Positions 38,402 through 58,800 of a DNA stretch of 64,000 nt are shown one piece after another. Position numbers and translations under genes: made by a program. Origin of the DNA: Candidatus Dormiibacterota bacterium (GTDB lineage: Bacteria; Chloroflexota; Dormibacteria; Aeolococcales; Aeolococcaceae); the NCBI GenBank assembly GCA_963709585.1, contig CAVPXI010000006.1, positions 224,001 through 288,000 of the forward strand. Reading direction: 5' to 3'. A model generated the notes under the pieces. That model made no database searches, was not told the DNA's origin, and saw nothing but the letters and a program-made list of their open reading frames with translations. Position 1 is the first letter of the stretch. The number at the start of each line of letters is the position of its first letter.

Positions 38402-40714
38402 ATGCATAACGAGAGCGCCGCGCGGCGCTGGCTGCCGATCTTCGCGACCGCAGTGCTGCTCGGGATCACCAGCTGGCAGCTGGTCGGCTCCACACTGCAG
38501 ACGCGCATGATGCTCGTGGAGATCGAGATCGTGGTCGTCGGGGCCGTCATGCTCGAGATCCCGATTCGCTTACGTCGCACGGCACGCGTCAGCCCGTCGA
38601 TCGCGACGCTGGTGCAGGGGCTTACCAGCGTCGGGTTGTGCACCCTGGTTCTGGGGTTCTCGGCTCCGCACTATCCGCTGCCGCTCATCGTGCTCGGATT
38701 TGTCGGCGTGCTGCTGACGGTCGATCCCTCAGCCCGCCCGGTGGCGCTCTGGATCATCCTCATGGCGTCATGCGCAGGCATGGCCGCGGTCTGGTGGTGG
38801 GCGAACTTGTTTCCGATATACGGGGTCAACCAGCTGCTCCAGGTCGATGCGCTGATGGTCGGCGTCGTGGTGCTGGCGTACTCCAACTGGTCGTTGACCG
38901 ATCGCCATTACCAGGCGCAGACGCGACGGCTGCGCGCCGTCGCAGACGTGGCTCGGCGACTGGGGCTCACCACCGACTCGAGCGAGGTCGCGGCCGCGGT
39001 GCTCGGGGGCTGCCACGAGACCTACCCGGACGCGACCTGGGGGCGGGTCCTGCTCTACGAGGCAGGCTCCGACGGTCTCGCGACGCTCCCGCTGATCCTC
39101 GGCCCGGCCGGCGTGTCGCCGGCGGCGGGGCCGATCGTTGTCATGGCGCCCGGCGACGGGGTGATCGGCCGCGTGTACTCGACGGGCGAGGCCTGCCTGC
39201 TCCGGACGCCGCGCGAGATCAAGCAGGCCTACGCGTCGATGCCGGATTCACACCTCGACGAGCTCGAGAGTCTCGGTGGCGGGCGACGCTCGAGACGCGT
39301 CGTCGCCGCGCCGTTGCGGGCCACGGGCGGACGCGTGATCGGGGTTCTGGTGCTCATCTCACATGCGCGCCGGGGCGCCTGGGACGCCCACGACCTGACC
39401 GTCGTGCAGGCGATCGCCGACGAGGCCGCGGTGGCGGTCGCGCGAGCCGGCCTCTTCGAGGAGCGCGCGTTGCACGCCACCACCGATCCGCTGACCAAGG
39501 TCGGCAACCGGCGCGCGTTCGATGAGCGCCTCGGCGAGATGACCGGCGCGAGCGCGGTGATCGCCATCGACGTCGACCACCTCAAGCCGATCAACGACGA
39601 GTTCGGCCATGAGGCCGGCGACATGCTGCTCATCGAGGTGGCGCGCACGTTGCGGGCGTTGCTCCGGGTCGGCGACCAGTTGCTGCGTATCGGCGGCGAC
39701 GAGTTTGTGTCAATCATGGATGCAACTACCGAAGCCGAGGCGGTCGCGATCGCCGAGCGGATGCGCGTCTCGCTGCACGGGGTCGCGTTGCCGCACGGCA
39801 AGGCACGGATCAGCGCAGGTGTCGCCGCCGGCGGTGGCGGTGTGCACGCCCTGTGGCTGGCCGCCGACGAGGCCCTGTCGACGGCGAAGAAGGACGGTCG
39901 CGATCGGGTCGTCGTCGCCGGCGACCGGTCGCTGCCCAGCCTCGTGCGCGGCGGCGGGGACGCCGGCGCGATGCTGGACGCCATCCTGAGCAAGCGGCGC
40001 GTCATCCAGGCGGTGTTCCAGCCGATCGTGCTGTTGAACGATCACCAGGTGATCGGATGGGAGGCGCTCGCGCGTGTTCCCGGCCTCCGGGATCCGGGCG
40101 ACGGCGTCGAGGACGTGTTCGCCCTGGCGCACCGCCGCGGCGTCACCAAGGAGATCGACTGGATCTGCAGGCGGATCGGAATGGCCGCGGCGTCCGGGTT
40201 GCCGGACTTGGATCCACTCTTCCTCAATGTCTCGGCGGCGATGCTTCTCGATCCGCTTCACCCGGTCGATCACATGCTGCTGCTCGCCCGGTGGGCGGAG
40301 CGCGACCCCGAGACCATCGTTCTCGAGATCACCGAGCGCGAATCGATCGCCGATCAGCAACGCCTCCGGTTTGTCCTCGCCAGTTATCGCGAGCACGGCT
40401 TCAAGTTCGCGCTCGACGACATCGGCGAGGGCCACTCCACGCTCGAGCTGCTCGCAGCTGCCGTCCCAGAGTTCTTGAAGGTCGCCAAGAGCATCACCCA
40501 GGGCTGCGTCGAGCGCGGACCCCGCGCGGTCATCGAGGCAACCGTCGCCTACGCTCGGAGCTCGGGGTCGACGGTCATCGCCGAGGGCATCGAGGACGAG
40601 GCGACCGCCGACCGTCTCGCCGCACTTGGGGTCTCCGCCGGTCAGGGCTACTGGCTCGGCCGCCCGCGAGAGATGGAGCTCGATCCCGAAGCGCGCGGCG
40701 AGGCAACGGCCTGA
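38402..40714 (+). CDS. Membrane GAF-GGDEF-EAL c-di-GMP protein
   Basis: About 5 TM; DPLT...NRR, GGDEF, EAL, DDIGEG, EGIE, GQGY. Confidence 0.93.
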   Translation: MHNESAARRWLPIFATAVLLGITSWQLVGSTLQTRMMLVEIEIVVVGAVMLEIPIRLRRTARVSPSIATLVQGLTSVGLCTLVLGFSAPHYPLPLIVLGFVGVLLTVDPSARPVALWIILMASCAGMAAVWWWANLFPIYGVNQLLQVDALMVGVVVLAYSNWSLTDRHYQAQTRRLRAVADVARRLGLTTDSSEVAAAVLGGCHETYPDATWGRVLLYEAGSDGLATLPLILGPAGVSPAAGPIVVMAPGDGVIGRVYSTGEACLLRTPREIKQAYASMPDSHLDELESLGGGRRSRRVVAAPLRATGGRVIGVLVLISHARRGAWDAHDLTVVQAIADEAAVAVARAGLFEERALHATTDPLTKVGNRRAFDERLGEMTGASAVIAIDVDHLKPINDEFGHEAGDMLLIEVARTLRALLRVGDQLLRIGGDEFVSIMDATTEAEAVAIAERMRVSLHGVALPHGKARISAGVAAGGGGVHALWLAADEALSTAKKDGRDRVVVAGDRSLPSLVRGGGDAGAMLDAILSKRRVIQAVFQPIVLLNDHQVIGWEALARVPGLRDPGDGVEDVFALAHRRGVTKEIDWICRRIGMAAASGLPDLDPLFLNVSAAMLLDPLHPVDHMLLLARWAERDPETIVLEITERESIADQQRLRFVLASYREHGFKFALDDIGEGHSTLELLAAAVPEFLKVAKSITQGCVERGPRAVIEATVAYARSSGSTVIAEGIEDEATADRLAALGVSAGQGYWLGRPREMELDPEARGEATA

Positions 40715-43719: not shown

Positions 43720-44520
43720 ATGCCGACAAGGTCTCGTCTTGCCGCTGCCGCGCTCGGTGCCACCGCTGTGGCCACCATCCCGTCCGCCGTATTCGCGACC
43801 TCCTACGTGGTGCGCCCGGGCGACACCGCGTCGGACATCGCCGTTCGTCACGGCACCACCGTGGCCGCGCTGCTCGACGCCAACCGGATGGCCGCGCCCG
43901 AGCTCATCCGGGTCGGTCAGATGCTGCAGATCCCCGACGCGTCACTGGCGCTGCCCGCCTACGCGCGCGGCGCGGATGACTTCGAGACCTATCGGGTCGG
44001 CCGCGGCGAGGGCGTTTTCGAGGCGGCCCGGCGTTTCGGTGTCGACCCCACGGCGCTCGCGCGCACCAACGGCATCGGCGTCAACGCGCCGATCGCTGAA
44101 GGTGACGAGCTGGTCGTTCCCGGCCGCCTCACGCGGATGAATGCGCTGGTGAGCTTCGTCGCCGCCGACGTCGGGGTCGACGCGCGGCTGCTCCGCGGCG
44201 TCGCCTGGGCGGAGTCCCAATGGCGGCAGGAACGTGTCTCTCCGACCGGGGCTGTGGGCGTCATGCAGATCGAGCCCTTCACGGGCGAATGGGTCTCGCG
44301 CCACCTCGCCGGGTCACATCTCGACATCTGGCGCGCGCAGGACAACGTGGTCGCCGGGGCGATGCTGCTCCGCCACCTGATGACCAAGCACGAGGCCGGC
44401 ATCCCCGCCACCCTCGCTGGGTACTACCAAGGTGATGCGAGCGTCGCCAGTCACGGTGTTTACGACGACACGCGTCGGTACCAGCGCGAAGTCCAGGACC
44501 TGATCGCTCAGGACGTCTGA
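43720..44520 (+). CDS. Secreted 2xLysM + lytic transglycosylase (SLT) protein
   Basis: Signal peptide; YVVRPGDT; AESQW, GAVGVMQI, AGYYQG. Confidence 0.9.
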   Translation: MPTRSRLAAAALGATAVATIPSAVFATSYVVRPGDTASDIAVRHGTTVAALLDANRMAAPELIRVGQMLQIPDASLALPAYARGADDFETYRVGRGEGVFEAARRFGVDPTALARTNGIGVNAPIAEGDELVVPGRLTRMNALVSFVAADVGVDARLLRGVAWAESQWRQERVSPTGAVGVMQIEPFTGEWVSRHLAGSHLDIWRAQDNVVAGAMLLRHLMTKHEAGIPATLAGYYQGDASVASHGVYDDTRRYQREVQDLIAQDV

Positions 44521-45443
44521 GCGATCGGGGGCGGCCACCCGCCCACTCGCGTCATCGCGCCGCTTTGGTCGACAAGCCGCGCGGGAAGCCCAGCCTTGTC
44601 GAGCCATGCGGCTGCCGTGGCACCCCGGACGATCGCGGCGGTGGCGGCGATATTGGCGTCGACGCAACTTCCGGCGACGACGCTGACCGTCCGCCACGGC
44701 CCCGCAGCGGGAAGCCCGGTGGCCGGGTCGATGATGTGATGCAGCTCGACCTCGCCACGCCGCCAGCGGCGCACGGTCGTGCTCGAGGTGGCGACGCCGC
44801 CGGCGCGGATCGCAATCGTCTCGCCGTCCGGCGTGATCGCGGCGCGGCTGTCCTCGGCGATCTGAATGTGCCATCCCTCATCTGGGGGATCGCCGGCAAC
44901 TGAAACGTCTCCACCCAGGCTGACGAGCACCCCACCGCCGTGCATCGCATCGATCGCCGCGGCGGCGGCGAGGTCGGCGGCGAGTGCTTTGGCGGTTGCG
45001 CCGAGATCGATCTCGACGCCGGCGTCGATCTCCACACGTCGGGTGACCGGAAAGAGCCGGATCCGCCGCCACCCGGGCACCGGGGACACCACGAGGGTCA
45101 GCGGCGCGCCGTCGGCAGGCACCGCGTCGAAGTCGACACTGTACCCGGCGCTGCGGACCGCCCCGCCAACCGTCGGATCGACCGCGCCCTCGGTGAGCTC
45201 CGCCGCGCGGATCGCGGTGGCGAGCGCCTGCGCCAGCAGCGGTGACACGGCGCCCTCCCGCCGCCCGACGCCGGCCTGGAGGCGGCTCAGCTCGCTGTCC
45301 TCGCGGAATCGGCTGCACGCCAGGTCGATCGCGCCAACCACCGCCTCGACCGCGGCGGTCGCGGCGTCGAGGGTGTCCGGGTCGGTGACGACCACGTCCA
45401 TCGAGGTGCCGAGAGCGCTCCCTCGGTACGCGGCAAGGGTCAT
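44508..45443 (-). CDS. apbE: FAD:protein FMN transferase, no signal peptide visible
   Basis: SRFREDSELS, DPTVG, DLGATAK, SLGGD, ATSS, HHIIDPATG. Confidence 0.93.
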   Translation of the reverse strand: MTLAAYRGSALGTSMDVVVTDPDTLDAATAAVEAVVGAIDLACSRFREDSELSRLQAGVGRREGAVSPLLAQALATAIRAAELTEGAVDPTVGGAVRSAGYSVDFDAVPADGAPLTLVVSPVPGWRRIRLFPVTRRVEIDAGVEIDLGATAKALAADLAAAAAIDAMHGGGVLVSLGGDVSVAGDPPDEGWHIQIAEDSRAAITPDGETIAIRAGGVATSSTTVRRWRRGEVELHHIIDPATGLPAAGPWRTVSVVAGSCVDANIAATAAIVRGATAAAWLDKAGLPARLVDQSGAMTRVGGWPPPIAQTS

Positions 45444-45757
45444 GAGCCGCCGCTGACGGTACTCGCTGACGATGAGCTTCCGGTGCTCGCGGATCCGGTG
45501 GAAAGTGACGACGACCCGGTGCTCGATGAGGAAGAGGATGGCGTCGTCGTCGTGGCGGTCCCCGAGGACGATGTCACTGTCGTGCTCGATCCGCTGTTGG
45601 TCGTCGTCGAACTACCCGCGTGGGTGTGCGCAGCCAGGATGGCGAGCGCGGCGACGGCCGCGGTTCCAACCACCCCGAACGACGTCGTGAGCTTGCCGCG
45701 CAGACGGAGCGCCCGGTCCCGCTCGGCCACCGTGATGGGTCGCTTCCGCGACGGCAT
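45440..45757 (-). CDS. 105-aa membrane-anchored Ser/Thr-rich protein ending in VSGGS
   Basis: Start overlaps the GT2 stop; stop overlaps the apbE ATG; TM segment followed by a low-complexity stalk. Confidence 0.75.
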   Translation of the reverse strand: MPSRKRPITVAERDRALRLRGKLTTSFGVVGTAAVAALAILAAHTHAGSSTTTNSGSSTTVTSSSGTATTTTPSSSSSSTGSSSLSTGSASTGSSSSASTVSGGS

Positions 45758-46539
45758 CACCGAATCTCCTGGGGATGACGCGGGTGTGGACGCAGCCCAC
45801 CGCGAAGTCGCGGCGTCGGGCGGAACAGCCGCAGCACGCCGCGCAGATCGGTCAGCGCGGTGTGTGGAACGTTCACCCGCGAGTCCGGGTCCTCGACCCA
45901 CTCCACCGGGACGTCGTGAATACGAAAGCCGGCACGCTGCGCGATGACGAGCAGCTCGGTGTCGAAGAACCATCCCTGATCACGAACCATGGGCACCAGG
46001 TCGCGGGCGACCTGCGCGCGTATCGCCTTGAATCCGCACTGCGCATCGCGAAAGCGCGTGTGCAGCACGGCCCGAAGCAGGAGGTTGTAGGCGCGCGAGA
46101 TGACCTCGCGCTGTGGGCCCCTGGTGACCCGCGCACCGCGTATGAGCCGGCTGCCGATGGTGATGTCGCTGCCGCCCGCGAGCAGCGGCGCGATCAAGGC
46201 CGACAGTGACTCGAGTCGTGTCGAGAGGTCGACGTCCATGTATGCGAGCACACGCGCTTCGCTCGCCATCCACACTGCGCGGATCGCTCGACCGCGACCC
46301 TTCGCGCCGAGATGGACAAACCGGACGCCGTCGAGCTCGACCGCGAGCCGCATGCCGATGAGGCGGGTTGCGTCCTCGCTCGCGTTGTCGACGATGGTGA
46401 TCCTGGACGCGAATGGAATTCGCGTGCACACATGGGCGTGCAGGGCGCGAATGCTCGTGTCCAGGACGCGCTCCTCGTTGTATACCGGAACCGCGATATC
46501 CAGAACCGGAGCGCTGGTTGTGGCGCGCAGATCGTTCAT
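45757..46539 (-). CDS. GT2 glycosyltransferase (polyprenol-phosphate sugar synthase-like)
   Basis: PVYNEE, VDNASED, YMDVD, DAQCGFKA, WFFDTELL. Confidence 0.9.
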   Translation of the reverse strand: MNDLRATTSAPVLDIAVPVYNEERVLDTSIRALHAHVCTRIPFASRITIVDNASEDATRLIGMRLAVELDGVRFVHLGAKGRGRAIRAVWMASEARVLAYMDVDLSTRLESLSALIAPLLAGGSDITIGSRLIRGARVTRGPQREVISRAYNLLLRAVLHTRFRDAQCGFKAIRAQVARDLVPMVRDQGWFFDTELLVIAQRAGFRIHDVPVEWVEDPDSRVNVPHTALTDLRGVLRLFRPTPRLRGGLRPHPRHPQEIR

Positions 46540-46584
46540 GACATCAAGCGTGCTGCCGGCGCCTTGACGCGAGCCACGAAGAAG

Positions 46585-46653
46585 CTGGGAGGCATCTGTG
46601 AAGTCACGGGGATCTCTGAGCGGACTCACAGCGATCTCCGGCAGGTCTCTGAG
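46585..46653. promoter_or_regulatory. OmpR/MprA-type hexamer array with 11-bp period in a divergent promoter
   Basis: TCACGG 46604, TCTGAG 46615, TCACAG 46626, TCCGGC 46637, TCTGAG 46648; opposite-strand TCACAG-N5-TCCCAG at 46585-46601. Confidence 0.65.
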
Positions 46654-46688
46654 CCGGCACCCCTACAGTCGCGAGCGAAGGAGTCCTC

Positions 46689-47432
46689 TTGCCGAATCCC
46701 CAGCGCCGTTCGTTTCCCCGCCCACGGAGCGGCCGCGCATGGCTGTTCAGCGCCGTCGTCGCGGTGGTCGCCGCCGGCGCCGCGGGCGTGCTCTTCGTGT
46801 ATTTCGTGCTCTTCAGCCACTCGGCGCCGGCGCCGCTCGCGCTGGCGGCGCCATCAGCAACCACCCAATCGCCGGCACTGACCTCGACCGCGATTCCGGG
46901 CAGCTGGACCGTCGCATCGAAGTCGGTTGCGGGATACCGCGTTCGCGAGCAGCTCGCCTTTCTCTCGGCGCCGAGCGATGCGGTGGGACGCACGTCCCAG
47001 ATCACCGGTACCGCGACGATCACCGGGTCCGGGACCGCCCTGACTCTGAGCGCCGCGTCATTCAGCGTTGACGTGCAATCCCTGACCAGCGATCAGTCGA
47101 TGCGCGACAGCCACCTCCAGACCCTCGGGCTCGAGAGCGCGCAATTCCCGCATGCGACATTTGTGCTGTCGGCACCGGTGACCTTGCCCGCAACCGCGAC
47201 ATCGGGGGCCGAGGTGCAAGTGCCGTTGCAGGGTGCGCTGACCATCCATGGGACGACAAAGACCGTCACGATTCATGTGCAGGCGCGGCTCTCAGGCTCT
47301 GAGATCGAGGTCGTGGGTTCGATCTCGTTCCCGTGGGGCGAGTTCAACATGCAGGCGCCGAACATCGGCGGGTTCGTCACCGTCGACGGCACGGCCACGA
47401 TGGAGTTCGATCTCTTCCTCAAGCACGGTTGA
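46689..47432 (+). CDS. Membrane-anchored YceI family protein
   Basis: TM segment; SVAGYRVRE, SLTSDQSMRD, GALTIHGTTK. Confidence 0.88.
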   Translation: MPNPQRRSFPRPRSGRAWLFSAVVAVVAAGAAGVLFVYFVLFSHSAPAPLALAAPSATTQSPALTSTAIPGSWTVASKSVAGYRVREQLAFLSAPSDAVGRTSQITGTATITGSGTALTLSAASFSVDVQSLTSDQSMRDSHLQTLGLESAQFPHATFVLSAPVTLPATATSGAEVQVPLQGALTIHGTTKTVTIHVQARLSGSEIEVVGSISFPWGEFNMQAPNIGGFVTVDGTATMEFDLFLKHG

Positions 47433-47442
47433 CGCGGAAGCG

Positions 47443-47661
47443 TCAGGGACGCGAGGCGAGAGCCTGCAGCCGCAGCGCGAGCGTGGGGCACCCCGAGACC
47501 GCTCGCTTTGCATGCGGCAACACCGACTTGGGGATCGCCCCGGGACGGATGATCGGGTACCCCCAGTCATCGAGCTCGATGAGCTCCGGCACGAGGTCGG
47601 CGCAAACACCGTGGCCATCGCACTTGATGCGATCGATGCCGAGCGTGACGCGGTCGCTCAT
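47443..47661 (-). CDS. Ferredoxin
   Basis: CDGHGVC...CPTLAL. Confidence 0.88.
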   Translation of the reverse strand: MSDRVTLGIDRIKCDGHGVCADLVPELIELDDWGYPIIRPGAIPKSVLPHAKRAVSGCPTLALRLQALASRP

Positions 47662-48887
47662 GACGCCGCCGCCGCCACCGCGCGTGCGACGCTGCAACGC
47701 CGCTCGAATGCGTGGTGTTCGAATTCGTCGGCAAAGACGCGAAGCGCTGACGCGAGCAGTCCGGCCGCACCGTCGGGGTGGCGACAGGCGCCGCGTCCCG
47801 CCAGGAAGCCAGCCCAGCGCTGGATATGTTCGAGGTCGCCCGGCGTCGACGCCAGCCCGGCGACGCGCCCCGCGCACGCGGAGATGGCGCGAAGGCCGAA
47901 TGTGCACGGCCCGCACTGGCGGGCACTCTCGTGCGCCAGGTACGCGAGGATCCTCGCGGTCTCGACGACACCGCATCGCTCCGACGGCAACACGGCGATC
48001 ACCCCGCAGCCGAGTGAATATCCCTGCTGGCGCAGCGGATCGGTGTCCAGTGGCAGCCCCCATGCGGTGCTGGACTCGACCCATCCTCCGAAATACCCGC
48101 CGAGCAGCACCGCATCGCTGTCGGACGTGATGCCGCCAGCGGCATTCACCGCATCAGCGAGTGCCAGACCCATCGGGATCTCGATCAACACCGTCTGGGG
48201 AACGGCACCGCCGACGGTGACCAGCGTCGTCCCCGACGCGTCCCCGATGCCGAGTGAGCGAAACCACTCATCGCCGAATCGCGCGATCAGCGCGACGTGC
48301 GCAAGCGTCTCGACATTCTGTACGAGCGTGGGACGTCCATCGATCCCGCGCTCGTACGGACGCGGCGGAATCGACGTGGGAAGCGCGATCCCCGCGTTGA
48401 CGAAGTGCACGGCCGCGGTCTCCTCTCCGGAGACATAGCGAACCGGTGAGCTCACCAGCCGGATCCGCTTTCGCTCGGACGCGGAACGTTCGGTCATGGC
48501 GCGCTGCATCGCCTGGATGGCGCCGGTATGGTCGGCGCCGACATAGAGGACGATCTCACCCGCTCCAACGGCGCCCGCAGCGAGCACCGCTCCATCGATG
48601 ACCAGGTGGGGACGCTGCTCCATGAGCATGCGGTCCTTGCGGCTCAGCGGCTCTCCCTCACCGCCGTTGGCGAGCACGACGGGGCGCCCCGCCCTTTGCG
48701 CCGCGACCGATCGCCACTTGGTCGCGACCGGGAATCCGGCCCCGCCTTTGCCGCGGAGGCTGCTTCGCTCGATCGAGTCGATGAGCGCCCGTGTGGCCTT
48801 CGGCAGCGCGCCGAGACGATGCTGATGCTCGGCAAACAACTCCATGCCCAGGGTCGCGGGCGGCCCGGCGAGCAGCGCGATGCTCAT
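47658..48887 (-). CDS. NuoF-like NADH-binding FMN/[4Fe-4S] protein
   Basis: LRGKGGAGFP, NGGEGEP, YVSGEETA, NVETL, CGPCTFG, ACRHPDG. Confidence 0.9.
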   Translation of the reverse strand: MSIALLAGPPATLGMELFAEHQHRLGALPKATRALIDSIERSSLRGKGGAGFPVATKWRSVAAQRAGRPVVLANGGEGEPLSRKDRMLMEQRPHLVIDGAVLAAGAVGAGEIVLYVGADHTGAIQAMQRAMTERSASERKRIRLVSSPVRYVSGEETAAVHFVNAGIALPTSIPPRPYERGIDGRPTLVQNVETLAHVALIARFGDEWFRSLGIGDASGTTLVTVGGAVPQTVLIEIPMGLALADAVNAAGGITSDSDAVLLGGYFGGWVESSTAWGLPLDTDPLRQQGYSLGCGVIAVLPSERCGVVETARILAYLAHESARQCGPCTFGLRAISACAGRVAGLASTPGDLEHIQRWAGFLAGRGACRHPDGAAGLLASALRVFADEFEHHAFERRCSVARAVAAAAS

Positions 48888-49468
48888 TGTCCCGCTCCGA
48901 ACGACGCACGCTCCGCGGCCACGCGACGTTCGTCCGCGAGCGGGTCCGGCGGCGCCGCGACCATGCGCCAGACGAGAGCCACCCCGACGGCACCGACGCA
49001 TACAACATCGATCACGATCATCCAGAGTGCCGTGCTGTCGGTGCCGGTGCCGATGCCGTGGAACACGGCCACCGGCCAGCTCGCATACGCGAGCCAGTGG
49101 ATTCCGCGCCACACGCGAGCGCCGATGTACCGGCGGAGCAGGCTGGTCGCAACGATCGCGAGCAGCAGCTCAAATGCGATCGCCCCGAGGCCGAGCCACA
49201 AGGTCCGATAGGACGAGCCGAATGGAACCAGCGCGGTCAGGCCGAGGTGGGTGAACGGGTCGACCACCGCGGTGACGATGTGGAGCACCAGGAACACGAG
49301 CGTCATCAGGGCGAGGTCGCCGTGCACCGCCGCGCTGAGGAATCGCGGCCAGCCATGCGTTTCAAACCGCACGCGGGCGAGCAATCCGAGGACGACGACC
49401 GCACTCAGCAGCACGAGGCTGACAGCGCCCGCGCCGCGCGTGGTGTACCAGAGCAATTGGTCAGACAT
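48884..49468 (-). CDS. Ferric reductase-like / MsrQ-like heme b membrane protein
   Basis: Five TM segments with His ligands; WRGIHWLAYASW, HGIGTGTD. Confidence 0.88.
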   Translation of the reverse strand: MSDQLLWYTTRGAGAVSLVLLSAVVVLGLLARVRFETHGWPRFLSAAVHGDLALMTLVFLVLHIVTAVVDPFTHLGLTALVPFGSSYRTLWLGLGAIAFELLLAIVATSLLRRYIGARVWRGIHWLAYASWPVAVFHGIGTGTDSTALWMIVIDVVCVGAVGVALVWRMVAAPPDPLADERRVAAERASFGAGQ

Positions 49469-49480
49469 CGGCTCGAGCCC

Positions 49481-50896
49481 TCATGCTGCCGGAAGCTCGA
49501 TCCGGAAGGTCGCGCCGCCGCCGGGCGTGTCGGTGACGCTGATCCTTCCGCCATGCGCGGTCACGACCGCGGTGGCGATGCTCAGTCCCAGACCGCTGCC
49601 GCCCTGGTCGCGACTGCGCCCCGGGTCCGCGCGGTGAAACCGCTCGAAGATCCGCTCGCGTTGCGCCGCCGGAACGCCGGGCCCGTGGTCGATGACGTCG
49701 ATGTCGACGTGTCCGTTCTGCGCCTGCAGGGCTACCTCCACCGGGCTTCCCGCCGGCGTGTGCACGAGCGCGTTGCGTACGAGGTTGGCGACCGCCTGAC
49801 GCAGCCTCAGGTCATCGCCGGTCACCACGATGGGCGCGTCGATGTGGGCGATCACCGCTCGTTCCGGGTCGGCCGCGCGCGCGTCACTCACGGCGTCGTT
49901 GACCATCGAGGTGAGGTCGACCGGAGCCCGGTCCAGCGGGCGTCCCTGGTCGAGTCGCGCGAGCAGCAGCAGGTCGTCGACCAGCACGCCCATGCGCCGG
50001 GTCTCGTCCTCGATGCGCCGGACCGCGAGCAGCACGTCGTCGCGGGTCATGTCCGGGTTGCGTTGCAGCAGCTCCGCGTAGCCGCGCATCGATGTGAGTG
50101 GTGTCCGGAGCTCATGTGAGGCGTCCGAGACGAAGTGACGCAGTTTCTGCTCGGTCACATCGCGCTCGTCGAAGGCTCGCTCGATCTGGCCGAGCATGGC
50201 ATTGAGCGCGAGCCCGAGGCGTCCGACCTCGGTGCGCTCGTTCGACGGCGCGACGCGACGACCGAGGCCGCTCGCCGCTATCGAGCGAGCGGTTGCGCCC
50301 ATGCGCTCCAGCGGACGCATGCCGCGGCGCACCAGCAACCACGTTGCGACCAGCACGATGATCGTGATGCCACTACTGATTGCGATCTCAAAAATGAGCA
50401 GGGTGCTCAGGGTGGTGTTGACGCCATCGAGCGGAACCGCGACCACGACTGTGGACGTCGAGTCACCCGGAAACTGCGGTGGCTGCGAGCTGACCAACAC
50501 CCTGTACGACTCCCACGACCCCTCCCCAGGAACGGTGAGCGCCGACCCGGCGTCTTTGGCGATATCGGAAGGAAAAACCGGATTCGACGACGAGCTGGGA
50601 GCCACGGTTCCGCCGTAAAGGTAGCCGGCCTGTGTGGTCACGCCGGACGCGCTCACGAGTTCGCCGTATGTCCCCGCCGGAAAGGCATCCTGTTTTCCGA
50701 ACCCTCCATCCGGTGGTCCACCCTGTTTGCTCGAATCAAGAACGGTCTGCGCGCCGGGCTCGATAACCACGAGTTGTTTGTCAACGCCCTGGAGGAGTGA
50801 CGTCTGCAGTGCGGCGTAGGTGCCGACGTCGGCGGCGGCGAGGCCGAGGATGAAGAGCGGCGCCAGGGTCAGCAGCAGCCTGAGTCGCAGGGACAT
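49481..50896 (-). CDS. HAMP sensor histidine kinase
   Basis: SDASHELRTPLT, NLVRNA, DHGPG, GSGLGL. Confidence 0.95.
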   Translation of the reverse strand: MSLRLRLLLTLAPLFILGLAAADVGTYAALQTSLLQGVDKQLVVIEPGAQTVLDSSKQGGPPDGGFGKQDAFPAGTYGELVSASGVTTQAGYLYGGTVAPSSSSNPVFPSDIAKDAGSALTVPGEGSWESYRVLVSSQPPQFPGDSTSTVVVAVPLDGVNTTLSTLLIFEIAISSGITIIVLVATWLLVRRGMRPLERMGATARSIAASGLGRRVAPSNERTEVGRLGLALNAMLGQIERAFDERDVTEQKLRHFVSDASHELRTPLTSMRGYAELLQRNPDMTRDDVLLAVRRIEDETRRMGVLVDDLLLLARLDQGRPLDRAPVDLTSMVNDAVSDARAADPERAVIAHIDAPIVVTGDDLRLRQAVANLVRNALVHTPAGSPVEVALQAQNGHVDIDVIDHGPGVPAAQRERIFERFHRADPGRSRDQGGSGLGLSIATAVVTAHGGRISVTDTPGGGATFRIELPAA

Positions 50897-50928
50897 CTAC
50901 GGCCCTGAGCACATGGTGGGCGCGCCGC

Positions 50929-51642
50929 TCACGCGTGCGCCGATGTCGTGCGCGGAACACGGATGACGTATCCCACTCCACGAACCGTGTGAATGAGCGG
51001 CGGGGTGACCGTGTCGACCTTGCGGCGTAGGTAGCTGATGTACGTCTCCAGCACGCTCGCGTCGCCGCCGAAATCGTAGTCCCAGACGTGATCGAGGATC
51101 TGCGAGCGCGAGAGCACGCGGCCGGTGTTCATCATCAGGTAGCGCAGCAGGCGGAACTCCGTGCGGGTCAACTCGATCGGCGCCCCGGCGCGGAAGACCT
51201 CGTGGGTCTCGTCGTCGAGCTCGAGGTCGTGGAGCACCAGCTTGCCGCTCGCGGCGGCGCCGTCAGGATTGTGACGCCGGAGCACGACCCGGATTCTCGC
51301 CACCAGCTCCTCGATGCTGAACGGCTTGGTCACGTAGTCGTCGCCGCCGATCGTCAGCCCGTGGACCTTTTCCTCGGTGGCGTCGCGGGCGGTCAGGAAG
51401 ATCACCGGGACCTTGACGCCGTCGCTGATCAGACGCTGCACGAGCGTGAAGCCGTCGTCGTCCGGCAACCCGACGTCGAGGATCATGAGGTCGGGGCGGA
51501 AGTCCATCACAGCGTGGCGGGCCTGCTTCGCGGTGCCCGCGGTCTGCACCGAGAAGCCCTCGTACTTGAGCGCCATCGCCACGAGATCGGTGATTGCCCG
51601 CTCATCGTCGACGACCAGGATTCGATTCGGCTCTGTGGTCAC
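50929..51642 (-). CDS. OmpR-family response regulator
   Basis: VVDDE, LDVGLP, KPF, ETYISYLRRK, HTVRGVGY. Confidence 0.95.
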   Translation of the reverse strand: MTTEPNRILVVDDERAITDLVAMALKYEGFSVQTAGTAKQARHAVMDFRPDLMILDVGLPDDDGFTLVQRLISDGVKVPVIFLTARDATEEKVHGLTIGGDDYVTKPFSIEELVARIRVVLRRHNPDGAAASGKLVLHDLELDDETHEVFRAGAPIELTRTEFRLLRYLMMNTGRVLSRSQILDHVWDYDFGGDASVLETYISYLRRKVDTVTPPLIHTVRGVGYVIRVPRTTSAHA

Positions 51643-51692: not shown

Positions 51693-52532
51693 CTACGCCG
51701 GGCGTTGCACCGCATCGCGCGCCCGCCCGCGCTCCCCGTCGCCGAGCGGAAGCGAGAGGCAGCGCACCCCGCCGCCCGCCTTGAGAAACTCCCCCATGGC
51801 ATGGGGGATCGGCGTGTAACCCGCGGCCCGGAGCGGTGCCTCCAGCTGCGAGATGGTCAGCGACGAGAGCACGAGCCGGCCGAGCGGCATCGCGTTGCAG
51901 GCAAAGCCCGCGGCGACCTCGACGGGCACCTCGATGAGATTCGGCACCAGCTCGCGGATCAGTCGCATCGAGGCGGGGGCGAACGCGTCCGGAGCAGCCA
52001 GGACGTTGGTGGCATCGAGCGGACAGAAGCAGGTGTCCAGATGATAGAAACGCGGGTCGACAAGCTCCAGGGACACGACGTCGACCTCGAGGATGCGCGC
52101 CACCGGGTGGTGGGCTTCGCGATCGGTTCGAAACCCATAGCCGCAGAAGAGCCGGTCGCCGACGAACAATGCATCTCCAGCGCCTTCGAATGACAGCGAT
52201 CGTGGCAGTTCGTGGACATCGAAGCCCAGCCGCTCGAGCTCCCGGCGCCAGTGCACCTCCTCCCCCTGCCGCTCGGGGTGATGGAAGTTGCTCAGGACGG
52301 CGCGGTTGTCCCACAACACGGCCGCGTTGGCCGTGAAGACCATGTCGGGCAGACCCGCGACCGGTGCAGCCAGTTCGATCTCAACACCGAGGTCGACATA
52401 GGTGCGATAGAGCGCGTCCCATTGCGCCGTGGCCAGCTCGTGGTCGACCTTGACCGCGACGTGCATCCACGGGTTGATCTCGTATTCGATGCCGAAGTGG
52501 TCCGGTCGGCACATTAGGACCGTTGCGGTCAT
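51693..52532 (-). CDS. Amidinotransferase / DDAH-arginine dihydrolase superfamily enzyme
   Basis: YEINPWM, PDMVFTAN, FEGAGD, YHLDTCF, GGGVRCL. Confidence 0.9.
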   Translation of the reverse strand: MTATVLMCRPDHFGIEYEINPWMHVAVKVDHELATAQWDALYRTYVDLGVEIELAAPVAGLPDMVFTANAAVLWDNRAVLSNFHHPERQGEEVHWRRELERLGFDVHELPRSLSFEGAGDALFVGDRLFCGYGFRTDREAHHPVARILEVDVVSLELVDPRFYHLDTCFCPLDATNVLAAPDAFAPASMRLIRELVPNLIEVPVEVAAGFACNAMPLGRLVLSSLTISQLEAPLRAAGYTPIPHAMGEFLKAGGGVRCLSLPLGDGERGRARDAVQRPA

Positions 52533-53641
52533 CGAGTCGCCTGGGGCAGCGCGGCTCCGTCGCCAAGCGGTAGCGGCATGAGGAGTGTCGGCGAGAATCG
52601 CGTCCCCGCGTGCAGCTCGATCGGGCCCGCCACCGCGGGTCGCTGCACGCACCAGCGAGGATCGACGTCGTCGCGAATCGCAAGCAGCTCCGGCCGAAGC
52701 AGCGACCCCGCGGAGCTGCGACCCTGATGCCGGACGGTCGCGGTGAGCGCGGGACGCAGCCAGGTCGCGGTGACCGGCTGCACGCCATCCAGGGGCGCGT
52801 CGCTGACGGTCAGGTCGGCAACGCGTTGCGCTAGCCAGCCGGCCACGAGTTGATCGTTCGGCCCGTCCACATGCCCCGCGAACGTCAGGCGGCCGGCGAC
52901 ATGCTCGCCGAGGATGAGCCGGGTGCCGCCACGCCGGCGCGCGACGATACCCGCGACGACGCAGGTGGCCTGATCCGTCAGCCCGATGCGCAGACGATCG
53001 GGCGAGGCGACCCCGGGGCGGTAGGGAGCGTTCGCGCGCCGGGCGAGCAACGCAGCGAGACCCCTTCCCATTGCGGCGGCCGCGAGCGCCTCGCCACGCC
53101 CACGCACATGGTCCGGTACCTGGAGAGCATCGCTCTGCCCGGCCAGGTCTCCGAGGGCATCGAGGCGGCGATCGAGGGGCCAGCCGAGCGTCGACCGTCC
53201 GTCGAGATGCAGGAGGTCAGAGCCCAGATACACGGCCGGCAGCTCGTGCGCCGCAGCGGGTCCGGCGGCGAGACGCCGCCCGAACCCCGCCAGGTCGGGA
53301 CGTCCCTCGGGGTCGAGGACCGTGATGACACCGTCAAGTACCGCGCCCCGGCCACCCCGCACCGCTGCGGGCGCGGCAACGTCGGGGAAACGCCGTGCGA
53401 GATCGCCGGGCATCTCACCCTGGATCCGGACGGCCCCGACCGGGTCGAGGAAGAGCAGCGCCCGGGCTCCATCCCAGTCGACGCTGAACAGCCAGTCGCG
53501 GTCGTCGAACGGCGCGGCGCAGGGAACCGACGCCTCGATCGCGATATACCTGGAGAGCTGGGGTGGGGTCGGGGATCGAAAGGGCAGAGGATCGCCGGAC
53601 GCTGCCAGGGCGGCACGAGACAGGCCTGCTCTCCCGGCCAC
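52529..53641 (-). CDS. Degenerate ATP-dependent DNA ligase domain protein (catalytic Lys absent)
   Basis: WLFSVDWDGARA at motif I; LDGVI, DLLHLDG, YRPG; OB-fold-like C-terminus. Confidence 0.8.
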   Translation of the reverse strand: MAGRAGLSRAALAASGDPLPFRSPTPPQLSRYIAIEASVPCAAPFDDRDWLFSVDWDGARALLFLDPVGAVRIQGEMPGDLARRFPDVAAPAAVRGGRGAVLDGVITVLDPEGRPDLAGFGRRLAAGPAAAHELPAVYLGSDLLHLDGRSTLGWPLDRRLDALGDLAGQSDALQVPDHVRGRGEALAAAAMGRGLAALLARRANAPYRPGVASPDRLRIGLTDQATCVVAGIVARRRGGTRLILGEHVAGRLTFAGHVDGPNDQLVAGWLAQRVADLTVSDAPLDGVQPVTATWLRPALTATVRHQGRSSAGSLLRPELLAIRDDVDPRWCVQRPAVAGPIELHAGTRFSPTLLMPLPLGDGAALPQATR

Positions 53642-53658: not shown

Positions 53659-54519
53659 TCAGGAGGCCCGGCGCCGGCGCGCCGGTTCCAGCGCGGAGGC
53701 GTCGTCGGCGGCGGATTCCTCTGCGTCGGCGCCCTCGGCTCGGCGCGATTTCGCCGCCTCGACCGACGCTTTGAGCGCGGCCATGAGGTCGGTGACCTTG
53801 CCGGGCTCGCGCACCTCGGGCCGCTCGAGCGGCTGGTTGGTCAGCTTGGAGTCCACGACCTGGATCAACGCCTCACGGTAGTCGTCGTGGTAGCGCGCCG
53901 GGTCGAAGTGGGCGCTCATGTTCTCCACCAGCATCACCGCCATGTCCAGCTCTTTCTTGGGGACCTCAGGACCTTGCTCGGGTATCGCCAGCTCGCCTGC
54001 CGAGCGGATCTCGTCCGGCCAGTGCAGGGTGTTGAGCAGCAGACCCTGGTCGTGGAGCGCCAGGCGGCACAGATGCTCGCGGTCGCGCAGGGCGATCTTC
54101 CCGATGGCGACGGTTCCGGTCTTCTCGAGCGCCTGGCGAAGCAGCGCGTACGGCTTGACTTCCACCGCCTCCGGTTCGAGGTAGTAGGCGCTCTTCAGAT
54201 AGACGCCCGCCTCGATCTCCAAGTCCGGGCAGAACTCGACGATGTCGATGGTGTGCGTCGTGGTCAGGGGCAGGTTGTCGAGGTCCGAGTCGGTCACGAT
54301 CACGTACTCGTCCTTGCCGACTTCGTAGCCCCGCAGCGCTTCGCTCCAGCCGATCTCGCGATCCTCCTCGGGGCACCAGCGTTTGTTGCGGACCGGAGTT
54401 TGGTCGTTCGGGCAGAGCAGCCGGAACGAAACGCTCTTCGATTCGGTCGCCAGGTACAGCCGCACGGGGATCGCCACCATGCCGAAGCTGATGGCGCCCC
54501 GCCACATGGATCGAGGCAT
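53659..54519 (-). CDS. ku: NHEJ protein Ku
   Basis: RSMWRGAISFGMVAIPVRLY, YYLEP, LHWPDEIR, DLMAALKASV. Confidence 0.97.
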   Translation of the reverse strand: MPRSMWRGAISFGMVAIPVRLYLATESKSVSFRLLCPNDQTPVRNKRWCPEEDREIGWSEALRGYEVGKDEYVIVTDSDLDNLPLTTTHTIDIVEFCPDLEIEAGVYLKSAYYLEPEAVEVKPYALLRQALEKTGTVAIGKIALRDREHLCRLALHDQGLLLNTLHWPDEIRSAGELAIPEQGPEVPKKELDMAVMLVENMSAHFDPARYHDDYREALIQVVDSKLTNQPLERPEVREPGKVTDLMAALKASVEAAKSRRAEGADAEESAADDASALEPARRRRAS

Positions 54520-55818: not shown

Positions 55819-58800
55819 TCAGGGACGGCTCGGAATGTCCTGGTCAGCCTGCAGCACCGGGGCGAAGAGATCGCCCGTCGCAGCCACGCGCGCGGCGATG
55901 GTCGCGATGTTCCAGCGATCGGGGCGCAGGTCGGGATCGTCGAGCTCCGTCCATTCGATGGGGGTCGATACCGGGGCACCCGGCGCGGGTCGGAGCGAGT
56001 AGGGGGCCGCCAGAGTCTTGTTGATGATGTTCTGGGTGTAGTCGATCCGGATCCGGCCTGTCCGCTTCGCCACCGCCCATTCCCAGCTCACGCGCCCCGG
56101 GGCAGCCTGGTCGATGGCTCTGCCGACCTCCTCCACCCAATGGCGCACGACCGCATAATCCGGGCCGCGACGAACCGGCACGTAGATCTGCAGCCCGGTC
56201 TGCCCGCTGGTCTTGATCACCCCATGCATGCCGTAGTGATCCAGGGCCGCCTTGACGAGCTTGGCAATGTTGACGACGTCCTGGAACGTCGCCGGTTCGA
56301 ACGGATCGAGGTCGAACACCGCCCAGTCGGGATCATTGGGCGCGTCGATCCGCGAATGCCACGGGTGCAGATCGATGACCCCCGCGTTGGCCACCCACGC
56401 CAGCGTCGCGACCTCGTTGACGACGATGTACGTCTTGGTCTTCTCGCCCTGATACGTCCAGGACTCGATCCACGTCGGGGCGTGGGCCGGTTTATCCTTG
56501 CGCCAAAAGGATTTTCCATCGATGCCGTCGGGAAACACCTGCATCGACAGGGGACGGTCGCGCAGGTACGGCAACATGTACGGCGCCATCCGGACGTAGT
56601 ACTCGATCATGTCGCGCTTGGTGATGCCATCGGCGGGCCACAGCACCTTATCGAGATTCGTGAGGGGAAGTCTGCGTCCCGCGATTTCCCAGTGCGCGTT
56701 GCCTTTGAGCGTTCTCAGCTGCGCCAGTGCTTGCAAGTCCTCCGGGTCCTGTCGCGGTGGGGGCCCCTCGCCACCTGCGGGTCGGGTCTCCTGGGGCTTG
56801 TCGTCTTTTCTGGTGGGTGACGCGTCCTCGGAGCCCGGCCCTCCGGTGGCGCTGCTCCCCACCGCGCCACCCGGAGGTCGGTGTGCCATAGCGGGCGTCT
56901 GGACTCCCTGTGCTCTGCGCTTCGTGCGGGGGGTGGCCGCAGCCCCCTCCCTTGGTGGCCGGGGCGCTTTGGCCGGCGCAGCGTGGGACGGACCGGTACT
57001 CGGTCTTGGACGTGCTGACTGTTGCGCCTGCGTGCCACCTTCCCTTGCTGATTTCTCGCTGGGCGTTGCATCGGCGATGGGCGGGGTGTTCCCGGCACGG
57101 ATGGCGGCGCGGGAAGGGGTCGGGCCGTCTGCGGGCTCGGTCTTGAGAAAGGCTTCTCGCATGCAGTCTTCGGGGCGTTGGTCGGGGCGGAGGGTGCGGA
57201 AGGCGGGGTGGCGGAGGATGCCGTCGCGCGTCCAGCCGGCGAAGCGGACTTCGCAGACGAGCTCTGGTCTGACCCAGGTCGCGGGTTCCGAGGTTTTCGG
57301 GGTGACGTCGAGTGGACACGTGTTCACCTCCAGGGGGCGGAGGCGGTCCCTGAGGTCGCGCAAGGCCTTCTCGTCGAAGCCGGTGCCGACCTGTCCGCAG
57401 TGGACGAGGCGGGTACCGTCGAGCACGGCGAGGATGAGCGCGCCGAGCTGGCTGGTCCGGCGTCCGCGGCCGGCCGTATAGCCGGCGATGACGCACGACT
57501 GGCTGAGCCAGGACTTGATCTTCACCCAGTCGGGCGTGCGCACTCCGGGGCGGTAGAGAGAATCGGCTCGCTTCCCGACGATGCCTTCGATGCCGGACTC
57601 GCGCGCGATCTCGAAGAGCGATGTGCCATCTCGCTCGACGTGCTCGGCAAAGAGGATGTACGGCGAGTCGACGACGGTTTCGCGAAGCGTCTTCTTGCGA
57701 ATGCGCAGCTCGGTGCTGAGCAGGTCGCGGCCCTCGAGCTCGAGCAGGTCGAATGCGATGAACGTCACCGGATGTTCGGCCGCGACCCTGCGCACATCCG
57801 CATCGCGCACCACGTTGATTCGCTGCTGCATGCGCTCGAACGACGGCCGGCCGTCGGCGTCGAGGACCACGAGCTCGCCGTCGACGATTGCCTGGCGGGC
57901 GCGGATGCCTGCCCGGATCGCCACGGCCTCCGGGTAGCGCCTGGTCTCGTCACCGCCACGCCTGCCGGTGAGTCGGACAAGGTCCCCGGCGACGCTGACC
58001 ATCGCGCGGATGCCGTCGTACTTCAGCTCGAACAGCAAGCCATCCCTCGAAAACGCGTGATCCATGGGCGTCGCGAGCATTGGTGGCGGCGCCTCGGCGA
58101 GGGCCGGGGAAGCGACCGTGGGAGCAGCCGCAGTGGCCGCCGCCGTCGTGGCGACGGCTGGGGCGTTTCGAGCACGAGCGGCGCGACGCGTCTCCCGGGG
58201 GTCGCCGCCGCCCTCATTGGCAATCTGCGCCAGGCTTCTGCCGGTTTTGACTGAAACGTCGAGGTCGATGGCTTCGAACCCCTCCACAACCGAGGCGTCG
58301 CGCTTCTTGATCATCAGCCAGTTCTTGTCACCATCGCTGCTGCCGCCGTATCGCCGGCCGCGCTCGCCGATGTGAACGAGCGCGAACTCGCCCGAGAGCT
58401 TGGTGCCCTGGAGGCGGAACTTGACGTCCCCTTTGAGCCGGGAACGGTCGTAATCCTCGGCGAACTCCTTCACCCACTCGAAGGTGCCGATGTCCCAGAG
58501 CATCACCGTCCCAGCGCCATATCCCGACGGGATGACGCCCTCGAACTCACCGTAATCGATCGGATGGTCCTCGGTCTGCACTGCCAGGCGCTTCTTGGCC
58601 GGATCCAGGCTCGGGCCCCTTGGAATCGCCCACGACAGCAGCACCCCGTCGTGCTCCAGCCGGAAGTCGAAATGCATGCGTGTGGCTCGATGTTTCTGAA
58701 CGCAGAACCGCTTCCCGTGGGGCAGCTGCTCCCACGCCGAGCGCTCCGCCTCGGCACGCGGAGTCGGGTCGCCGCTGGGCTCCGGGGTCTGATTGAAATC

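Follow-up and report, generated by a model that had tools for sequence, protein, structure and literature searches.

The systems closest to the one reported here are the 'MsrQ-like' gene clusters of Meheust et al. (2021, PMC8238504), in which a PF01794 di-haem membrane protein is encoded together with apbE, the gene for an FAD:protein flavin mononucleotide (FMN) transferase, and usually with a gene for an FMN_bind protein. According to the cluster descriptions in that survey, NAD(P)H delivers its electrons to a fused NAD-binding domain or, in 31 of the clusters, to a NuoF-like protein (PF10589), the MsrQ-like clusters being reported as common in Actinobacteria, and the flavinylated partner is extracytosolic. 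Here we analyse a related cluster in a 64,000-nucleotide stretch of a Candidatus Dormiibacterota genome (assembly GCA_963709585.1, contig CAVPXI010000006.1, positions 224,001 to 288,000 of the forward strand; hereafter the window, with a G+C content of 64-71%), with attention to its ApbE homologue and to a small protein of 105 residues encoded by the open reading frame (ORF) just upstream of apbE. Like the MsrQ-like clusters, the window cluster has a PF01794 gene (the ferric-reductase-like membrane protein, FRD) beside apbE and a NuoF-like protein as the presumed entry point; unlike the typical ones, it is without an FMN_bind gene and has the small protein, which lacks a recognisable fold, instead. 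The survey, as its text describes the selection, kept only ApbE and FMN_bind genes that bear signal peptides (PMC8238504), and the ApbE clade of the window has none. On the whole, we regard it as rather probable, from the comparative evidence given below, that the cluster is a variant of the MsrQ-like conduit in which the folded FMN_bind acceptor is replaced by a small, disordered, membrane-anchored protein carrying FMN. In a literature search, which did not cover the cluster tables of Meheust et al., neither a natural ApbE substrate without a domain nor such a small-protein family was found described, nor an ApbE clade with Asn in place of the metal-binding Asp, as found here.

The evidence that carries this reading is the C-terminus of the small protein. 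The motif modified by ApbE, D-x-x-[S/T]-G-A-[S/T], ends on the acceptor residue, and the experiments described in PMC12052999 report that a tag of seven residues is sufficient and works best at the N- or C-terminus, that replacing Asp by Ala has only minor effects in one substrate, and that Ser is accepted, less well than Thr. The small protein of the window ends in ...ASTVSGGS. Counting the acceptor as position 0, its S-G-G-S has the [S/T]-G of the substrate motif at positions -3/-2 and a Ser/Thr acceptor. Among the nine proteins of the cluster the pattern [ST]G[AG][ST] occurs once, at the very end of the small protein, which agrees with the initial annotation, where the 105-residue protein with terminal VSGGS was named as the only candidate substrate.

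For comparison, a profile of the window ApbE subfamily was used to scan one genome per species, giving 569 confirmed ApbE relatives, and the best 80 of these 569 loci were analysed. The 80 loci belong to Dormibacterota, Chloroflexota and Actinomycetota, and take in Solirubrobacterales, Gaiellales, Acidimicrobiales, Streptosporangiaceae, one Acidothermaceae isolate and Actinacidiphila soli. In the window genus, where ApbE orthologues were compared in 24 genomes, every readable small ORF upstream of apbE ends in STVSGGS, STVSGAS or STVTGGS. In a second family of the same order, whose ApbE is 43-50% identical to that of the window and whose stalks cannot be aligned with the window's, seven of eight loci have a small protein directly upstream of apbE ending in VTSGGS, VRSGGS, VSSGGS or ATSGAS, and in the eighth the small gene (...AVVSGGS) lies upstream of a divergently oriented FRD gene. 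Taking all stop-to-stop ORFs of at least 50 residues in the six frames of the 80 loci as background, 64 of 9,022 end in [ST]G[AG][ST]. Fifty-eight of the 64 belong to the small-protein family, all on the ApbE strand with an Arg-rich flank, a hydrophobic helix and a low-complexity stalk, and they are distributed over 57 of the 80 loci; among the roughly 8,960 ORFs outside the family, six have this ending. The excess of the terminal motif is far beyond chance. In 11 more loci the same type of protein is present with one to three additional residues or with a variant ending, namely VSGGSH (L066), ITGASR (L067), VTGGSGR (L072), VRSGGSH (L075), TTGGSR (L081), VSGASH (L082), VSGGSR (L096), VSGGSGG (L104), ATSAAS (L090) and TGSS (L118 and L127), which brings the total to 68 of 80. 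The conservation of the C-terminal SGGS in homologous clusters had been put forward beforehand as the test of the initial annotation, and with the exact pattern in 57 loci and variants in 11 it holds. Among the remaining 12 loci, six have less than 1.8 kb of DNA upstream of apbE (L063, L065, L069, L071, L073, L092), four are Streptosporangiaceae-like (L086, L101, L114, L126), and L124 and L125 are unexplained.

Within the 58 family ORFs, position 0 is Ser in all, position -1 is Gly in 52 and Ala in 6, position -2 is Gly in all, and position -3 is Ser in 49 and Thr in 9, these four positions being constrained by the pattern searched, which permits Thr at position 0. Position -4 is Val in 36 and Thr in 17 (53 together), and position -5 is Val in 22, Ala in 19 and Thr in 14 (55 together). 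The consensus [VAT]-[VT]-S-G-G-S-COOH reads as a natural, degenerate flavin tag. Several loci have two or three paralogous small genes, and some of these paralogues bear the motif elsewhere than at the end: two proteins have two HA[TV]SGGS copies each (L077:2150-2569 and L085:4091-5104), in one a canonical DEPSGAT lies internally and STGGSH close to the end (L118:11492-12082), and in others TV[ST]GGS is followed by [AT]VVKK(P). Such copies (duplicated HATSGGS, internal DEPSGAT, TV[ST]GGS) support a motif of the flavin type.

The small protein itself consists of a basic N-terminus with 8 Lys/Arg within residues 1-23, one hydrophobic stretch, and a tail (residues 47-105) with no charged residue and 85% Ser/Thr/Gly. 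By the positive-inside rule it is predicted to be a single-pass protein with the N-terminus inside and the tail outside. The 105-residue ORF is a genuine gene, since an AGGAG ribosome-binding site stands 8 nt ahead of its ATG and variation in its final 25 codons falls chiefly on the third position: across 23 different genus orthologues, the variable columns in these codons number 11, 6 and 23 at codon positions 1, 2 and 3, and synonymous change alone is seen in 12 columns. Among the genus orthologues the ORF is between 291 and 330 nt long, with lengths differing by multiples of 3 nt. On a contig of a related strain (run X18), 3 nt are missing in the stalk at window position 45542, leaving the frame intact. 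Searches with Pfam and NCBIfam on seven small proteins from different lineages, including that of the window, found no family, and none of the known flavinylated folds (FMN_bind, NqrB/RnfD, DUF2271, DUF3570). Searching the first 50 residues against 5.8 billion protein clusters gave merely six close relatives, two of them truncated, showing that the small gene is usually left uncalled; the clusters closest to it in the ESM-Atlas, from Actinomycetota and Dormibacterota, are 'hypothetical' proteins with no shared family. In the metatranscriptome run X20 the small ORF has a depth of at most 2, and contigs of a relative with 90-99% identity from X20, X18 and X19 span parts of apbE and of the glycosyltransferase (GT2), yceI, ferredoxin, NuoF-like and FRD genes; contigs such as those of X20 cannot show transcription or strand, nor are those of X18 and X19 informative on either, these two runs being labelled RNA-Seq and probably DNA.

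All genes that had been named in the initial annotation were recovered in place by ORF listing and Pfam (Table 1). FRD scores 30 bits against PF01794, for which the cut-off is 28, and its translation has two His pairs, H49/H63 and H124/H138, each 14 residues apart; it is presumed to be a di-haem b transmembrane conduit. The NuoF-like protein scores 222 bits against NCBIfam TIGR01959, under the cut-off of 558, and its start overlaps the FRD stop in ATGA. GT2, the small ORF and apbE are translationally coupled, because the GT2 stop overlaps the small-ORF start in TGATG and the small-ORF stop overlaps the apbE start in ATGA.

Table 1. Genes of the window cluster (window positions; E-values are for Pfam matches)
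Feature	Position	Strand	Evidence
ApbE-family FAD:protein FMN transferase homologue	44508-45443	-	PF02424, E 1.9e-49, match from residue 11
Small 105-residue ORF, candidate fold-less flavinylation substrate	45440-45757	-	ORF, overlaps, conserved terminus
GT2 glycosyltransferase, start codon uncertain	45757-46629	-	PF00535, E 1.8e-16
YceI-like protein, hydrophobic N-terminal segment	46689-47432	+	PF04264, E 6.3e-19
72-residue single-cluster ferredoxin	47443-47661	-	PF13459 Fer4_15, E 7.1e-12
NuoF-like NAD(P)H-binding FMN/4Fe-4S flavoprotein	47658-48887	-	Complex1_51K, E 1.2e-35; SLBB; NADH_4Fe-4S, E 2.6e-16
Ferric-reductase-like (MsrQ-like) membrane protein (FRD), 194 residues	48884-49468	-	PF01794, E 6.1e-7
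Sensor histidine kinase	49481-50896	-	HAMP-HisKA-HATPase_c (Pfam)
OmpR-type response regulator	50929-51642	-	Response_reg and Trans_reg_C (Pfam)

Using the window proteins as queries, and keeping loci shortened by contig ends in the denominators, FRD is found in 67 of the 80 loci, the NuoF-like protein and the ferredoxin in 66 each, and the kinase/regulator pair, which presumably regulates the module, in 51. Given the frequency of the first three, the core of the module consists of the small protein, ApbE, FRD, the NuoF-like protein and the ferredoxin; the terminal tag co-occurs with this ApbE clade and with the FRD-NuoF-ferredoxin genes. GT2 and YceI are lineage-specific additions. The former occurs in 10 loci, nine of them in the window genus and the other in Acidimicrobiaceae (L129, 62% identity), and the latter in 6, so that glycosylation of the stalk and a role of YceI are at best specific to lineages. 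The best NCBIfam matches of GT2, all below cut-off, are polyprenyl-phosphate sugar synthases (AglJ, a dolichyl-phosphate hexose transferase and PpgS), a type that fits extracytoplasmic glycosylation of the Ser/Thr stalk. At least three gene orders exist: the commonest is small-ApbE-FRD-NuoF-ferredoxin, a second is small-FRD-NuoF-ferredoxin-ApbE (L062, L064, L066-L068, L082, L089), and a third, FRD-NuoF-ferredoxin-(YceI)-GT2-small-ApbE, is confined to the window genus.

The genome of the window (G000) holds three such modules, in the window and on contigs C4 and C13. The C4 module (C4:144735-147595, minus strand) has no apbE, and the small gene thus adjoins FRD-NuoF-ferredoxin even where no apbE is a neighbour. 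Its small protein ends in ...GGAPVAISGGS, its FRD has 339 residues with a C-terminal extension of about 150, its NuoF-like protein and ferredoxin are present, and a kinase/regulator pair adjoins. On C13 (82175-82944) apbE is split over two frames by two frameshifts and is either a pseudogene or an assembly error; with this copy broken, the apbE of the window is the only intact one of its clade in the genome. By Pfam, no FMN_bind domain is found on the small proteins or the FRD extensions of the module, and the pattern D..[ST]GA[ST] occurs four times in all ORFs of at least 80 residues in the 80 loci, in no case in an FMN_bind-like context. The only FMN_bind protein of the genome belongs to a classical cluster on contig C14. 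The description of the cluster as lacking an FMN-binding domain is therefore right for the module and has to be qualified for the genome, which also has this classical cluster of FMN_bind, ApbE and ferric reductase; since the latter sits elsewhere, the window module would be an additional flavinylation system. An FMN_bind domain hidden in the C-terminal extension of FRD was also considered and is rejected, as Pfam finds none. FRD extensions of about 180-220 residues without a Pfam match were seen in Acidimicrobiales and Solirubrobacterales as well (L076:4706-5809 and L091:6900-7979). In keeping with the favoured reading, five genomes of a sister genus that are without this ApbE are also without the NuoF-like paralogue of the module and give only a match of about 30% identity, presumably the NuoF of complex I; these metagenome-assembled genomes are 87-91% complete, and three are unpublished records (G027, G032, G036).

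The ApbE of the window spans positions 1-257 of the 266 in the PF02424 profile, and the profile of its subfamily matches 13 distinct solved ApbE/Ftp sequences (best E 8e-46). As the Pfam match begins at residue 11, there is no room for a signal peptide, and in the related loci the upstream ORF stops a few to some tens of nt from the aligned apbE start; the absence of a signal peptide, noted earlier for the window protein, is a property of the whole subfamily, whereas a lipoprotein or signal peptide at the N-terminus is typical of ApbE proteins, though not universal. Residues were counted in 81 subfamily sequences, with equivalence taken from the profile alignment to the solved ApbE/Ftp chains. 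The catalytic His (His236 in HHIIDP) and Ser (Ser220 in ATS), corresponding to His257 and Ser241 of V. cholerae as given in PMC12052999, are present in 81 of 81 with a spacing of 16 residues. The motif that is ADALATA in canonical enzymes reads [DE]-A-N-x-A-[SA]-T in this clade, and 77 of 81 have Asp/Glu262 two residues ahead of the Asn. The classical ApbE of the window genome keeps the canonical residues (ATSGTYER and, with Asp, ...ADAYST). In addition, a third, distant ApbE-like paralogue, 35-38% identical to that of the window, was seen in some members of the window genus (L134-L136; G004:C7, G011:C5, G003:C2), with Glu at the ADALATA position (AEVLAKTA) and no FMN_bind neighbour by tblastn.

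Attachment of FMN, the compartment in which it takes place, the topology, and the direction and purpose of the electron flow are what we infer as follows from the families present. The NuoF-like flavoprotein would oxidise NAD(P)H, and electrons would pass from it to the small ferredoxin, on to the two haems of FRD, and across the membrane. Within the cytoplasm, the signal-less ApbE would move FMN from FAD onto the terminal Ser, at its hydroxyl, and membrane insertion of the short protein would afterwards place the tail outside; there the tethered flavin could accept electrons from the outer haem and hand them on to a further acceptor. For lineages with frequent twin arginines, export of the pre-flavinylated tail by the twin-arginine (Tat) route is plausible. 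An Arg-Arg pair lies within the 30-residue N-flank in 48 of the 58 family ORFs (those of other lineages), and TatC is encoded in the window genome; the window protein itself has no twin arginine ahead of the hydrophobic region (RLRGK), and its genus orthologues have RGR, RKK or RRR. In a more specific form, a dedicated Asn-type ApbE would flavinylate the last Ser as a native flavin tag, and in soil Dormibacterota, Chloroflexota and Actinomycetota the exported leash of 40-250 residues would shuttle electrons from the NAD(P)H-fed di-haem conduit to the envelope or beyond. We hold this form to be possible, and only tentatively so.

Several described systems share parts of this scheme. The engineered Flavin-tag (Tong et al. 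2021, as described in PMC12052999) is likewise a short unstructured peptide that ends on the acceptor without any folded domain; it is artificial and has the canonical motif, whereas the natural tail has no Asp, Gly-Gly, always Ser at the end, and a divergent ApbE. In FMN_red proteins, flavinylation motifs have been proposed to lie on a C-terminal extension that is unstructured (Huang et al. 2024, bioRxiv 10.1101/2024.03.13.584918), comparable to the candidate site on the disordered tail here; as described there, however, that extension is part of a folded flavoprotein, and the flavin is predicted to enter this protein's own pocket, while the window family is without a folded domain. Cytosolic ApbEs are known: the second ApbE of Klebsiella pneumoniae is one (PMC12052999), and in the fumarate reductase of trypanosomatids a Ser in the terminal DGRSSAS is flavinylated by a fused cytosolic ApbE domain (bioRxiv 10.1101/2020.12.30.424822). 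They resemble the window system in the signal-less ApbE and in the Ser acceptor within a terminal Ser-rich motif, but their targets, in these sources, are folded cytoplasmic fumarate reductases and their ADALATA Asp is kept, where the window clade has Asn. The C14 cluster of the same genome follows the same logic, from NAD(P)H through haems to a flavinylated partner, and its FMN_bind protein likewise begins with a helix and contains a Ser/Pro/Ala linker; it differs in that its ferric reductase includes FAD/NAD domains, its FMN_bind domain is a true one carrying DIISGATFT, and its ApbE is canonical.

A number of points weigh against a tethered FMN, and they concern both the tag and the enzyme. 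The canonical Asp at position -6 is wanting in the family (0 of 58), and the canonical Ala at -1 is replaced by Gly in the window and in 52 of the 58; in the experiments described in PMC12052999, changes at the Gly and Ala positions cost about 50% of flavinylation. On the side of the enzyme, Asn264 takes the position of the canonical Mg-binding Asp in 80 of 81 subfamily sequences, and the Glu of canonical ATSGxYER is not kept, the stretch reading ATSSTTVRRW. The equivalent Asp284 in the ADALATA motif of T. pallidum is described as a major Mg2+ ligand and as essential, and the D316A variant of T. brucei is dead (bioRxiv 10.1101/2020.12.30.424822). The Asn-type ApbE may therefore catalyse another chemistry. 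The correlated change of enzyme and tag could reflect a co-adapted pair or, equally, a different chemistry; as a speculation, the altered metal site may be completed in part by the C-terminal carboxylate of the substrate, and the almost constant position of the tag at the very end would then be accounted for. The distribution of the genes also has exceptions: four loci (L086, L101, L114, L126) carry this ApbE without the FRD module or an SGGS gene in the locus, and in the second paralogous cluster of the window genus the ORF directly upstream of apbE ends in PPPVCHSTP[TS]HPC, not SGGS. Further, a cytoplasmic ApbE would need to modify a tail predicted to be extracellular, a conflict that arises because ApbE is signal-less while 8 Lys/Arg stand before the helix and none after it. 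A flavin on a disordered peptide would have no protein pocket to tune its potential, and FMN attachment is here a prediction of comparative genomics. The initial proposal of a tethered FMN therefore stands in part: comparative genomics supports it strongly, with the conservation of the tag and the absence of FMN_bind from the module speaking for it, and the tag without Asp and mostly without Ala, the Asn-type ApbE and the topology speaking against it.

Several of these points favour an alternative that we consider unlikely and still the best surviving one, in which the small protein would belong to an FRD-NuoF-ferredoxin complex as accessory subunit, anchor or assembly factor and ApbE would have another task, such as the binding or hydrolysis of FAD or the flavinylation of a protein encoded in another place. 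The conserved C-terminus would then dock on the outer face of the haem protein, or its terminal Ser would receive another modification. Asn at the essential Mg-binding position and a tag without the canonical Asp and usually without Ala are readily accommodated in this way, as is the fact that Ser is always the final residue of the motif and nearly always the very last of the protein, so that the free carboxylate rather than the hydroxyl could matter. The coupling of the small gene to a GT2 of the polyprenyl-phosphate-sugar-synthase type in the window genus also favours it, and some Ftp homologues act as FAD pyrophosphatases, as described in PMC4767422. However, an ApbE with another task agrees less well with the invariant catalytic His and Ser and with the acidic residue kept two positions before the Asn in 77 of 81 sequences. 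The ending [ST]-G-[GA]-S with Val/Thr at -4 resembles ApbE motifs, paralogues have internal or duplicated copies including one perfect DEPSGAT, the motif is in no other protein of the window cluster, and GT2 is present in merely 10 of 80 loci.

Quite improbable, in our view, is that a flavinylated tail works on the cytoplasmic side, mediating between the NuoF-like protein or ferredoxin and the inner haem. This arrangement would remove the need to translocate a flavinylated tail, and none of ApbE, the NuoF-like protein and the ferredoxin has a signal peptide, so that all three are presumably cytoplasmic. But the distribution of charges strongly favours the N-in/C-out topology, with 8 Lys/Arg before the helix and none after, and Arg-rich N-flanks, with the Arg-Arg pair in 48 of 58, are found throughout the family. 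Uncharged stalks rich in Ser/Thr/Pro are also typical of extracytoplasmic linkers. The extracytosolic position of the flavinylated partner in MsrQ-like systems (PMC8238504) points the same way.

That the 105-residue ORF is a chance open frame in the GC-rich DNA between GT2 and apbE is effectively refuted: high-GC DNA yields long ORFs in all frames and the protein is of low complexity with six matches in 5.8 billion clusters, but the frame is under purifying selection, indels including the 3-nt deletion at 45542 keep it, the AGGAG site and the start/stop overlaps are in place, and the same architecture and terminus recur in 68 of 80 loci in three phyla. Sorting signals of the sortase, exosortase or GlyGly-CTERM type were also considered and, by inspection, rejected, as an LPXTG-like motif and a C-terminal helix are both absent and the tag ends the protein. 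A microcin-like modification of the carboxylate of the C-terminal Ser was considered as well, and no supporting genes were seen.

If the favoured reading of a small, membrane-anchored FMN carrier is true, a domain-free tethered flavin would be a new type of redox cofactor carrier and the natural counterpart of the Flavin-tag, and both a distinct ApbE clade and a small gene family that mostly lacks annotation would gain a function. The family and the clade are widespread in abundant and poorly understood phyla of soil and peat, including Dormibacterota. This phylum has few or no cultured members. Natural ApbE substrates, as presented in the ApbE literature cited above, hold their covalent flavin in or beside a folded domain. 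For labelling purposes, a divergent pair of enzyme and tag might provide a second system, orthogonal to the one in use. New in this analysis are the gene order that includes GT2 and YceI in Dormibacterota, a genome with three modules and one intact ApbE, the six-frame statistic of the tag, the Asn in place of Asp in the ApbE clade, and a small protein with a Cys/His-rich end.

The last of these lies directly upstream of the second apbE paralogue, on contig C13 of the window genome (81560-82048, plus strand) and in the five second-paralogue loci examined (L045-L048 and L050). Its N-terminal part has an Arg-rich flank and a helix (...DRD[KS]A[FL]RRV[GA]SWT...), followed by a Pro-rich stalk with the conserved PAVI[IV][KR]VVHVP, a poly-Pro run and the terminal VCHSTP[TS]HPC, whose coding sequence overlaps the apbE start in ATGA. 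Its Cys/His/Cys ending points to a site for a metal or another cofactor rather than to a flavin tag. A small gene of the TV[ST]GGS type lies divergently beside the second-paralogue cluster in L046-L048 and on C13, and none was seen in L045 or L050. In the four Streptosporangiaceae-like loci (L086, L101, L114, L126), apbE stands alone among unrelated genes; named by eye, an MshA-like glycosyltransferase gene and a YbjN-like gene flank it on one side, and the opposite side has a gene for a CaiB/BaiF-like CoA-transferase.

Outside the cluster, a few further genes of the window were judged by eye from their translations. On the minus strand, a Ku-like protein (53659-54519) is accompanied by a multidomain LigD-like protein of 1006 residues (55819-58839), as in non-homologous end joining, and by another ATP-dependent-ligase-like ORF (52529-53641). 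On the plus strand, 38402-40714 encodes a membrane protein of 770 residues with GGDEF- and EAL-like stretches.

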